64,000 nt of DNA. Origin: Podarcis cretensis. Taxonomy: Eukaryota. A model generated the notes under the pieces. That model made no database searches and was not told where the DNA came from. It saw nothing but the letters and a program-made list of their open reading frames with translations. The position numbers and the translations under genes are program-made. This document shows, one piece after another, positions 50,401 to 56,400 of this stretch. The stretch is from positions 32,736,001 to 32,800,000 of the forward strand of contig OX638163.1 in NCBI GenBank assembly GCA_951804945.1. Reading direction: 5' to 3'. The stretch's first letter is position 1, and the number at the start of each line of letters is the position of its first letter.

Positions 50401-53400
50401 GAGCTGCGGCACTTGAGGGAGAAATTATTCTCTGCCTGAGAATAATTTTAATACCAAAGAAACAATATTAGTGTGTAATATAGTGACTTCATGTATTCAA
50501 CATGCATCTGATATTTTCATTGTTGCAATCCTCAGAACACCCCTATGAAGTAGGTTGATAATGCCACCCACAGATTGGAAATGAGGGGCTGAAGCTGAGA
50601 GGACAGTAGCTTACCTAAAACCACCTATCGGCACAAACAACTGTCAGGTGTGATGTGAATTGTAGCAACACCTGGAGGGGTACAGGTGCTCTGCTCCTGT
50701 TGTAAGCCTTACTACAACTTAGCAAACCCTCCAAAACAATGGTGGTTACTCCAAAGAGACAAACAGGGTCAGCCTAAAGCTTAAATCCAGGTTAAATTCC
50801 TTGACATCACCATATAGGGACAGGAAACCCTGGAGGGCAGGAGATAATATTAAGCTAGACAGATCACTGCTCTGACTCTGTAGAAAGCATCTTCCTGTAT
50901 TCACAGTAGCATCAAACCACACCAGGATCACAAGCCCAAGCACAGGGGCAAAATACAGAATTTTCCCAGGGGACCCCAAAAACGTCTCTTCCTTCCCTAT
51001 AATCCAAAACAGAAGAGCGGACAGCCGCTCCATCATAGCCTCCACTGCAGCATTTATTTTAGAACCAGCACACATTGTAAAAATAACACTATTCAAAGAT
51101 ACTTTGGTGGTGGTGGGAAGGATACAAAGTCTGTCTGTCTTGAAGCCCTCTCTCACCTGCTGTGCTCTGGGAGGCAGCATCTGCTTCTGGAAAGAGAGGA
51201 GATGCAATTTGGAAAGCTGCCCTGTGCAGGTAAGCAGAATGCAACTTCACATCACACGCAGATCAGGCCAACATGCTAATTTGATGGCGATTTCTGCTAC
51301 AGCTAACAGGGTAGGGTCGTATTTGCTCAGAATCTTACTGCTAAAGGCCTGTTTCCCTCTGCTGACAGCTCCGTTTCCTTACATGATGGTAAAACCTTTT
51401 TAAACAGCGAACCTCATTTGAACTCTCTTCTTTGCAGATCCCAGCTTGCAAACCAACATTTTATAGCAGGGACCTGCTTTGACTCCTATCAGCCCCAGCC
51501 AGTATGGACAGCTGTCAGGAGTGATGAGAGCTTGAGCTCAACAACATCTGGAGGTGTTACACAAACATCTGGAGGTGTTACACATCCCTCTTCTAAAGGT
51601 TGAGGCAATCCTGATAAAGCTAGATACATACCTGACAGGGGTTTTGCATCCTGCTCGGGGCGCTGATCCATTGTTGCAATGCGCTCATTATACCGCTTTT
51701 GATCTTCTCTTAATGTCTTGTATGCCTAGACAACCAAACAGGTGACAATTTTGACATACATTTTGGTTTATCTTTGCATTTATCTTTGCATTTGATTGGC
51801 TTTTGTCCACCTGGCACACTCAGGAAAAGTGGCTTCATTCCAAGGAAGTAAAACAAAAAAAGAGAAGCATCTGCCTCCCCAGGGGAGGGCAGTGGGAAGA
51901 CATTTTATACAAAGATTGTGGGCTTAAAATGCAATGGGTAATTTGAGAGTCCCCTTTTGCAGATGGGAGAGAATTTCTGCAACTCCAAGTGAAGGTTGCT
52001 ACAGAGGACTGGCCAGGCTTAGATTCAGCAAACATATAAAGGTGCAGACAACTGGAAAACCTGATCCATGGATCAGCAGCTACTGGGCTCAGAGGCCAAA
52101 TCCAAATGTTGCTCTCTTAAGGCACCATCAATGCAGGGGCAAGACAGCTGTGGGATGGGGGAAGCAGTGGCTGTGGTCTTGAGAGGCTAGATAAGTCTCA
52201 GCAGGCTAGTTGTACTCAAATGTTGCCTCTAGTGAAAGTCGCTGCCGACTGGAGTTATATTGCTGAGAAATAAGTTGGTTCAAAGTGTGCCTGTGGACTA
52301 TTTCTTCCCCTCTCAACAAAAAGTAAATAAATAAAACCATGTATACTTCCCCAAAGGGGGTCTGAAAAAGTAACAGGATACCCCAACTCCATGCAAAAAG
52401 TGAATTAAAGCATCTATTAGCAAGAAGCAAAAATCACACAAATATGAGGGAGAAGACGTGGGGGAGAAAGGAAAGTTAGCAAATGCTTAAAATGAAAAAG
52501 TGTGCAAGGTTCTTCTTAAACAGGTACAAAATTATGTAAGATAAAAGAATAATGATGGGGAGACAGAGAGAGATAGAAAGAGAGAGAATCAACATCAATC
52601 AACAAAGAAGCTGAGCCTTCAAAGACAGCAGGAGCAAAGACAAGCATTTGATTTATCACAACCAGAAGCATGAACTCCAAAGTCAGCCTTCCCCAACCTG
52701 GCACTCTCTAGATGTTTATTTGGACTCCCACTAGGCCAAGCCAACATGGCTGAAGGTCAGTGCTGATGGGAGTTGTAGTGCAACAACTAGAGAGCACCAG
52801 GTTGGAGAAGGCTGCAGTAAAGCTCGATTTTATAGAAAGATTAGGTTGTGAATATTTAAGACTGCCAGCATGAAATGGCAAGCTTCAGTTATGTCATGCA
52901 CCACCCACCAGCCCCGGCAACCAAACTCAATGGAAAGCAGCTTACATAAGCGCCTGCCCCCGTAACTGCTCCTCCTACAATTAAGAAGTACATTAGGTTG
53001 CTGCTGCCCTTGCCAGGAGCACCTGGAGACGTTAGCGATCTAGAAGGGGGTCTGAGATGCAGGCACTGCAAAACTGTAAAAGGAGACAGGGAGGAAAGAG
53101 AAGAGGGAAAGGAAGCAGAGAGCTCTGAGTATGAAATTAGGACACTGGATTATACAGATATTGGGGTGAGCAAGGCCTGTGTCAAAACCAGTATGCTAAA
53201 AGACAGAAGGTGTTCATTTATAGTAAAGAAAAGGACTCTTTTCATCCCTGATTCATTGTAGATTTAGCTTTGACCATGAAAAGAAGCAGCCTTGTTCAAG
53301 AACAGCCACTGCCTTCCCCTCCTGCAGCTGAGGCATGTGAGAAGATGAGGTCTGCACATAACATGTGCTATTTTATGAAATTATTCTGCAGAAGAGAATG

Positions 53401-56400
53401 CTAAAGCAGGTGTTTGTCTTACTCCCAGATGCCACAATTCTTTCCCATTACCACCAGCAGTTGCAAAGGTTCTGCTGCTTCTTTGGATTGGGTCCTAAAC
53501 ATTTTGACATGATGATGACGATGTATAAAGTTGCAACATTGCACAAGAGGTTCACACTATTCCGAAGGTCCTTTCCTATCATTCAAAATAAATGAGAGGC
53601 ACACTCTGAATCTCCATTTAGTTGCTTTCTGAGATTATTCACATCTCTCTGTTCAAGGAACCCAGCATAATGTCTTAAGGTGGCAGGTAACTGTACATTT
53701 GCACAATGCACTAGATTTACCCATGTCTCCACCAAAACAGGTTTCAAACTGCCCACCCCATACCCTATACTGTTTTTTTAGAAGAGGAAGCACATGCAAA
53801 GAGTGTGTGCTTTGCATACACAAGTCTCCAGTTCAATTGCTGGCATCTACACTTAAAAAAAAGTATCGGGAAGTAGGTCATGGGAGATATCTTAGCCCCA
53901 AACCCTGGAAAATTGTCACCATTCAGTTGCCAAAACAATGGGCAGCTTAATGGCCTCTTTTCATTTACAACATCAGTTATTAGCTCCTTTGAAGAGTGTT
54001 TTAGGCTGTCCCCAGCAGTTTCCCTTTAGAAAATGATTTTGGTGTGTTCCACTGGCAGATCCTCTGAATGGTTTGGGAAGCATCTGATGCTGCGTAGGTG
54101 TTCAAGCTAAGAAGGGTTAGACTTGGCCAGTCCACTGGGATCAGAGACCACTGGGAACCTCAGGTTAAAAGTAGCTAGTATAATAAATATTACTTAGAAC
54201 AATATCTTTATATATTGTTTTGTTGTTTAGAAAACCTAATGCTTTAATTGTAAGCTATGCTTTATATAGGCAAAGTCCAACGCAAAAGCTTTCCTAGTAA
54301 AAGGGTTTCAACAAAGAGACAATGGATGACTGGTAATAGCCAGGCTAGGAATAGACTGTGACTTGGCAATGGCCCTGGACAGATCAACTACTTGTCTGAC
54401 CTGGTAAATATTTCTTACACCCATTCTCCCTAGTCCCACAATTCCTGGCAGCTACTCCCAAATCAGCACAACTCCAAAATAGGTGGTCAGTAGTGGCACC
54501 AGTGGCTGATGCAGGATTTCACCGGGGTTGGGGGCAAGAAGAAGAGACACTGAATAATAGCAGCTTTTCTATTTTAAAAGGGTCTCCAGAGGGCCATGGA
54601 AAGCTTGCTGAGATAGAACAGCATCAAAGCAAGACAAATGGGGCAAGAACTAAGAACATGTTGCACAAACGCAATCAAAGCATCCTGCAGATTCCAACTG
54701 CTTAAAGACTCAGGGGTTCAATTCTCAAAGAACAGACAAACCAATTGTTCTGCTATCAGGTTCACGCATCAGGCTCACGTACCCATTCTTTCCCCAAAGT
54801 TTTCCAGTGATGGCCTGGAATCTTGGTTTGAAATGGATTTCCAAATCTGTTTTGGAGGCAAACCATAGTTTGATCGAGTTGAACATAACAGCCACCCATT
54901 GGTATACTTAAACTAGGAAGGGAATCAGAGTGTGCAAGGAGGGCAACAAGTCTGAGGTCTGATCCTGGTGACCAAACCATAATTTAAGAATGAAGCCAAT
55001 GTTCCTTTTTTTGCCCTCGGTTAAGTCCTGCTATTTAAGAATCTGATTTTAAATAATAATTCATAACTGATCTTCTTTTGAAAAAAGGGTATCGTGGGAG
55101 GAAAATCCTTAAACCAAATTTGCATATACCCAATCTCCAGGAATACCAGAACACCAAATCTGCAAGTTTCCTTGGAGACTAAAACAATGGCTTTATCTTC
55201 TGCTAATGTCATAAGCTATGGCATTTACAGCATTATAATGTGTCTGGAAAGCAGCAATAAACAAAACTCTCAGGCTAAACAAGTGTATCAGCCTGTGTTT
55301 AGGGACAAGCTCAGTGTATGATGCAATAATTGCTAAAAAAAACCTCGCCTTTACAAAAAATATCAGAATTCTTCCAACCAGTAAGAATAAACATAGAATT
55401 TCAATCTAGTTTCTGTACAAACTCAATAAAGTGGTACCTTGGTTCCCGAACGGCTTGGCTCCCAAACGCTGCAAACCCACAAGTGTTCCAGTTTGCGAAT
55501 GTTTTCTGGAAGCTGAACATCTGTTTCAGCTGTTGGCATTGTTTCTGGGGCCAATCAGCCCCAGATTAGAAGCCGAGCCTTGGTTTGCAAACGTTTTAGA
55601 AGTCGAACGGACTTCCAGAATGGATTAAGTTCAAGAACCAAGGTACCACTGTATAGCAGACAAAGTAGCCATTTGTTTGTAGATATATAGTGTTTGCCCT
55701 TCTCGTGAGATAACTGAAACAATGAGAGAAAAGGTTAACTTTTGATCCAGGCTTAACTTTGCTCCTGTGAGATTTTGCTGACGGAGAAGAGAAGCACAGA
55801 AACAGAGATGAGAAGCAGGAAGAGCAGAAACCAAAGGAGAGCTTAGAAGAGAAATGACCACTGTGTAGAAGGAGACATCTTGCTCTTTTCTTGACCATCA
55901 GGCCTTTCTACTTACATAGGCCCCTGCTCCTAAGGCGGATAAGCCCACAAGAAAGGCAAAGACAGTATTTTCGCCTTTGCCTCCCGGAACACCAGAACTA
56001 GTCATTTGTCTGCTCAGCTGAACTTCTAAGGGAACTTTCCATCGCTGAAAGAAGTTGCCTGGAAACACAATTTGTTAGGAGGGAGAATAGTCAACAGTGT
56101 ACCTTAATACACCAGCTAAGTTATAAATTGACAGTTGAGCAATCTACTTGTTTCACAGCCAGTGCTACATTAGTACTAAAATTATTTCACTGAGACATCC
56201 CAAAAGATAAAAATTGAGCTGTTTACCCTCTAATGCAAAGCACAAAGGTGGGCCATCGGATTTAAAATAAGGGGTTCAAGGTGGCTCACAACAAGGTTCC
56301 TGCCCTCCCCCCCATCTCTATATTCACAATCACCTTGCAATCACCTTGTAAGTTAAGAGACAAGAGCCACATAATAGATACCGTATTCTGGCTTACCGTG

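Follow-up and report, generated by a model that had tools for sequence, protein, structure and literature searches.

The stretch of DNA analyzed here, called the window, is 64,000 nucleotides (nt) of the lizard Podarcis cretensis (contig OX638163.1, positions 32,736,001 to 32,800,000), and the subject is its AIFM1 gene, which carries two versions of exon 2. The coding gene is on the minus strand of the window and was mapped by hand from exon 1 to exon 16. The coding part of exon 1, with the start of the mitochondrial presequence, is at 58833-58761 (73 nt, donor in phase 1). Exon 2A is at 56058-55916 (143 nt, acceptor ttccag before GC and donor gtaagt after TAT) and encodes the end of the presequence, the predicted processing site, and the transmembrane anchor. 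Exon 2B is at 53073-52946 (128 nt, acceptor ttacag before TT and donor gtaagc after TAT). Then come the common acceptor exon 3 (51725-51632, starting in phase 0) and exons 4-16, which encode the FAD/NADH oxidoreductase and the C-terminal domain (35355..50235), all GT-AG and open to the stop at 35355. Introns 1-2A, 2A-2B, and 2B-3 are 2702, 2842, and 1220 nt long. Judged by their sequences, exons 2A and 2B are the orthologues of mammalian exons 2a (AIF1) and 2b (AIF2).

Joined translation of exons 1-2A-3...16 gives an open protein of 600 amino acids (aa), and that of exons 1-2B-3...16 gives one of 595 aa. Podarcis muralis has RefSeq isoforms of equal lengths, both computed gene models, XP_028570581.1 (600 aa, 2A form) and XP_028570583.1 (595 aa, 2B form). 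The window's two models show 3 residue differences from these, all of them outside the two exon 2 copies, and models of other lacertids differ at 3 to 11 residues; a first-pass annotation of this DNA had placed it in a squamate, and the 3 residues bear that out. The AIF-MLS, Pyr_redox_2, and AIF_C families are found in both isoforms by way of near-copies that are 3 residues off the window models (P0064, P0067), and a near-copy from P. lilfordi (P0053) matches solved AIFM1 structures with E about 1e-300.

Both exons run from phase 1 to phase 0 and have GAGAY at the end of their peptides. The first-pass annotation had the coordinates, lengths, splice sites, phases, and GAGAY ends right, and also the intactness of both exons, each with canonical sites and an open frame. 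Splicing 2A and 2B together leads to a stop 39 nt into 2B, and splicing neither leads to a stop 35 nt into exon 3. The annotation had concluded from the frame that the two exons must be alternatives. That they are alternatives is supported; the early stop on joint inclusion makes a both-exon mRNA unproductive, but the frame alone does not prove that such an mRNA is never made. The 2A and 2B peptides are homologous to each other, with a local BLOSUM62 score of 76 against a mean of 21.5 and a maximum of 49 in 2000 shuffles. Searching this lizard's genome with the 2B peptide turned up no further copy of 2B, the other match having E = 0.83. The stop-to-stop frame around exon 2A is just 58 codons, which would explain how exon 2A was missed by the open reading frame track.

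In protein searches and cluster look-ups, squamates, turtles, birds, and placental mammals each yielded peptides of both exon types, and an alligator yielded 2B. Both types are also present in the newt Lissotriton helveticus. From 36 hand-picked proteins, about one per lineage and type, the exon-2 peptide was cut out; the Lerista 2A row, which was cut wrongly, was left out and the window's two were added. The tree of 37 tetrapod exon peptides splits into 19 of type 2A and 18 of type 2B with support of 100/100 on the whole exon and 100/99 on the shared core of 33 columns. The alignment columns are few and most inner forks of the tree stay open, and it is unrooted because no fish AIFM1 came out of the protein searches. 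Direct comparison gives the same pairing, with window 2A identical to Callithrix 2a at 30 of 47 residues and to Gorilla 2b at 15, and window 2B identical to Gorilla 2b at 28 of 42 residues and to Callithrix 2a at 17. Window 2B is identical to newt 2B at 27 of 42. Since the newt falls on both sides of the split, the duplication goes back at least to the base of the tetrapods.

A duplication specific to squamates, or one exon being a decaying pseudo-exon, might be suspected from the fact that both lizard exons end in the same five residues, in which they are unlike the placental pair. The tree and the approximately unbiased (AU) tests reject the duplication, however, and both exons are intact with canonical sites, so we give this reading next to no chance. 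Constraining the window's 2A and 2B to one clade is rejected at p-AU 7e-14, and constraining all 10 squamate rows to one clade is rejected at p-AU 1.3e-4, which refutes a squamate-specific duplication. What the first-pass annotation had proposed on ancestry is thus upheld: the lizard exons are orthologous to mammalian 2a and 2b, the duplication is older than the mammal-reptile split, both copies are conserved, and in the exon tree that it had named as a check the lizard 2A and 2B do not group together.

The pair is not a discovery. The human AIFM1 substitution of 2a and 2b is event 14, between ENST00000287295 and ENST00000319908, in the supplement of PMC8373072, where its common ancestor is given as Tetrapoda and the human exons as 143 and 131 nt with 2a upstream. 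The human and lizard pairs are alike in gene, position, order, and phases, with 143 nt in both for the first exon and 128 nt in the lizard against 131 nt in human for the second. The placental 2b is one codon longer, with an extra Y at its end, and the second half of its anchor is more hydrophobic; lizard 2B ends like lizard 2A, unlike the placental pair. Public models of both forms exist for Podarcis muralis, P. raffonei, P. lilfordi, Lacerta agilis, Sceloporus, Anolis, Sphaerodactylus, turtles, a falcon, and the newt Lissotriton, so that the isoforms are already public in lacertids as the event is in print. Some public predictions (P0001, P0055, P0081) wrongly hold both exon 2 copies by means of invented linkers or shifted splice sites. 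AIFM1 was not found in the supplement of PMC9741552 or in 12 of the 20 supplement files of PMC4465641, and a literature search found no paper on AIFM1 exon 2b splicing in lizards or other non-mammals.

We favor, at a probability of about 0.88, the reading that AIFM1 here has two tandem exon 2 copies and that splicing places just one of them between exons 1 and 3, 2B likely being a minor, neuron-enriched choice as in mammals. The products would be two AIF proteins, identical apart from the last part of the targeting sequence and the inner-membrane anchor. Where mammals have the processing site, both peptides retain R-x-M/L with small residues behind it, a processing motif, and the mitochondrial processing peptidase is predicted to cut both forms after it. 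Both would then be anchored with an identical catalytic body predicted to lie in the intermembrane space. Exclusivity would be kept by a regulated choice, with the frame as a back-up. A both-exon or no-exon mRNA would meet its early stop and go to nonsense-mediated decay, because that stop is far upstream of 13 or more junctions. Joint inclusion shifts the frame in 60% of human clusters, according to extracts of bioRxiv 10.1101/133215.

As to how the choice might be regulated, the acceptor of 2B is preceded by a C/U-rich polypyrimidine tract (53074..53123, minus strand) that is 91% pyrimidine, against 38-77% at the other 16 acceptors, and is a candidate PTBP1-type silencer. A TGCATG hexamer at 52895..52900 on the minus strand, 46 nt behind the 2B donor, is a weak candidate for an Rbfox-type enhancer; there are 11 copies in the 23.5-kb gene, one or more falling within 300 nt downstream of 4 of the 17 exons, and the 2B copy is the closest. 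Outside neurons, 2B would likely be repressed through the tract, and the downstream hexamer would promote its inclusion. A PTBP1 tract before an exon and an Rbfox motif behind it are the layout of an exon that is off outside neurons and on in neurons. Nothing relevant linking AIFM1 to Rbfox or PTBP1 was found in a literature search. Steric exclusion is unlikely, since 2842 nt of intron separate the two exons and the candidate branch points are close to the 2B acceptor, at distances of 64 and 109 nt upstream.

Use of the exons was looked for in assembled contigs of relatives. The run search listed none recorded as RNA, for the window's own species either, which says nothing about expression. 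It gave 16 runs whose RNA nature is a guess; they derive from three related organisms and contain 6-14% of the words. Of these, 4, from four studies, were compared over exons 1 to 3 only. Contigs of 3 of the 4 runs contain the exact 1-2A joint (X1, X5, and X8, at depths 41, 174, and 64), a 2A-3 joint is listed for X5 alone, and run X6 has no exon joint and no useful exon cover. The 2B-3 joint is present in X8, at depth 8.5 compared with 63.9 for the 1-2A contig of the same run. The two X8 contigs each break off after 27 letters of exon 3, which is what one would expect where two paths merge in the assembly graph. Among the 15 joints shown of 17 there is no 2A-2B joint. In the runs compared, 1-2A-3 is the main form, and the contigs demonstrate that 2A is used and that 2B is spliced at least in part, without bearing on tissue specificity.

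Several points weigh against the favored reading of a regulated exon choice. The contigs come from relatives, from runs only guessed to be RNA and with no tissue given, and the regulatory motifs were seen in a single genome. The same 15 joints include none from exon 1 to 2B. The short side of the X8 2B-3 joint is only 24 letters and carries a two-letter difference; on the coding strand this reads as the canonical joint with the opening codon of exon 3 changed synonymously. The exclusion may be leaky, given that in three UniRef models, from turtle, falcon, and squirrel, exon 2A leads out of frame into 2B and the protein breaks off a few residues later. The X8 2B-3 contig and one X1 contig continue without splicing from the upstream intron across the 2B acceptor, and these may be splicing intermediates. 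The lizard 2B anchor also comes out less hydrophobic than that of 2A, as described below.

The unspliced contigs lead to a second reading, that 2B in lizards is mostly reached from the unspliced upstream intron or from an internal start, yielding unproductive or N-terminally short RNAs. Both contigs covering 2B (X1, X8) are unspliced at its acceptor, the roughly 700 nt of intron before 2B (53074-53800) have steady contig cover in 3 of the 4 runs, and turtle and alligator models (P0032, P0017) reach 2B from another start. That cover, at a depth of about 5-8, is above most other intron parts, and slow splicing or an internal start are both possible sources. Set against this reading, the residues of 2B before its only methionine are conserved to the newt and mammals, as in the newt identity over the exon given above, and many public models run 1-2B-3, while contigs drop rare forms and so prove no absence. 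We consider the second reading improbable.

The anchors were compared on the best 19-residue window by Kyte-Doolittle, Wimley-White octanol, and Hessa scales, a crude computed proxy. In mammals, extracts of PMC6315035, PMC8048367, and PMC7896227 describe AIF2 as brain-specific with a more hydrophobic anchor and place processing at residue 54. Mammalian AIF1 and AIF2 and the lizard forms are alike in having the same catalytic body and two alternative segments for the presequence end and anchor. However, expression confined to the brain and a tighter anchor are findings from mammals, and the computed hydrophobicity in the lizard goes the opposite way, with 2B minus 2A at -0.15 on Kyte-Doolittle, +0.7 on Wimley-White, and +0.6 on Hessa, so that 2B is less hydrophobic on all three. 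The more hydrophobic 2B anchor, which the first-pass annotation had cited for mammals, does not carry to the lizard on these scales, and the exon is therefore not filed here as a functional AIF2. The same direction is seen in all 10 non-mammal pairs when Kyte-Doolittle or Hessa is used and in 8 of the 10 with Wimley-White. Placental 2b is more hydrophobic in 3 of 3 pairs on Wimley-White (-1.2 to -1.9), but lower by 0.07-0.09 on Kyte-Doolittle and at -0.2, -0.2, and +0.1 on Hessa; these pairs and one bird pair combine different species. In placentals, 2b has gained hydrophobic residues, through one G-to-A and one A-to-V/I change, as well as the extra Y. By this crude proxy, the tighter anchoring described for mammalian AIF2 may have been refined only in placentals.

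These comparisons give weight to a third reading, in which 2B is conserved and used but is not, in lizards, a brain-specific tighter anchor, and the switch alters something else, for instance import, processing, or partners, or serves in other tissues. It draws on 2B being mostly less hydrophobic than 2A outside mammals while placental 2b is more so on Wimley-White, on the three placental changes, and on galliform models, where 13 of 13 with an N-terminus carry 2B, suggesting that 2B can serve as a general anchor. The scales are crude, though, in that the mammalian result is not reproduced by Kyte-Doolittle and hardly by Hessa, and 2A predominates in the 3 runs covering the exons, as expected outside brain. 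This reading is compatible with the orthology on which the favored one rests, and we regard it as a substantial possibility while thinking it the less probable of the two.

The galliform models (P0094, P0172-P0185; 15 listed, including curated chicken NP_001007491) come from a cluster that was found through 2B, and, like the marsupial ones, are public models. The 9 marsupial models retrieved (P0122-P0124, P0126-P0128, P0162-P0164) are all of type 2A. To judge from these models, reciprocal losses, of 2A in galliforms and of 2B in marsupials, are possible.

Elsewhere in the gene, a 30-nt in-frame cassette exon lies between exons 3 and 4 (51157-51186, minus strand, acceptor ttccag and donor gtgaga). 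It adds 10 aa and explains lacertid models of 610 and 605 aa, and with the exon 2 choice it makes four full-length AIFM1 isoforms possible. The linker that holds it varies widely among turtle models. Short interspersed repeats in the introns, at about 55460-55655, 52680-52815, and 58059-58093, are places where many unrelated contigs pile up, and one SINE-like sequence is common to 61860-62200, 46190-46550, and 43830-44200.

A methionyl-tRNA synthetase gene on the plus strand, with a mitochondrial-type leader and apparent introns (59055-59303 and about 60200-60560; Pfam tRNA-synt_1g, E = 2.4e-9), faces AIFM1 head to head and begins 220 nt away from the AIFM1 start codon. Human MARS2 is intronless and elsewhere, and RAB33A faces human AIFM1; the site beside AIFM1 may be the ancestral locus of the synthetase. 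On the other side, also on the plus strand, there is a gene at about 1-28400 with ankyrin repeats near 22100-23700 and a last exon near 28069-28374, which we call BCORL1-like; roughly 7 kb separate its end from the AIFM1 stop. A look for an ETS-domain motif in the window sequence between the two found none, whereas in human ELF4 lies between BCORL1 and AIFM1.

Putting the anchor comparison together with the public models, one could propose that the switch is as old as tetrapods and the tighter AIF2 anchor is found only in placentals, reptile, bird, and newt 2B giving an equal or weaker anchor, with galliforms having kept only 2B and marsupials only 2A. We offer this tentatively and consider it rather unlikely as a whole. 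If it were true, the switch would originally have served some other end than shielding neurons from the release of AIF. Should 2B outside mammals not anchor more tightly, and should the chicken manage with 2B alone, the mammalian explanation would fail to account for the retention of the pair across tetrapods. AIF2 is described as barely studied in the review PMC7896227, and the conserved pair supplies natural variants for asking what exon 2b does, an open point in the AIF field.

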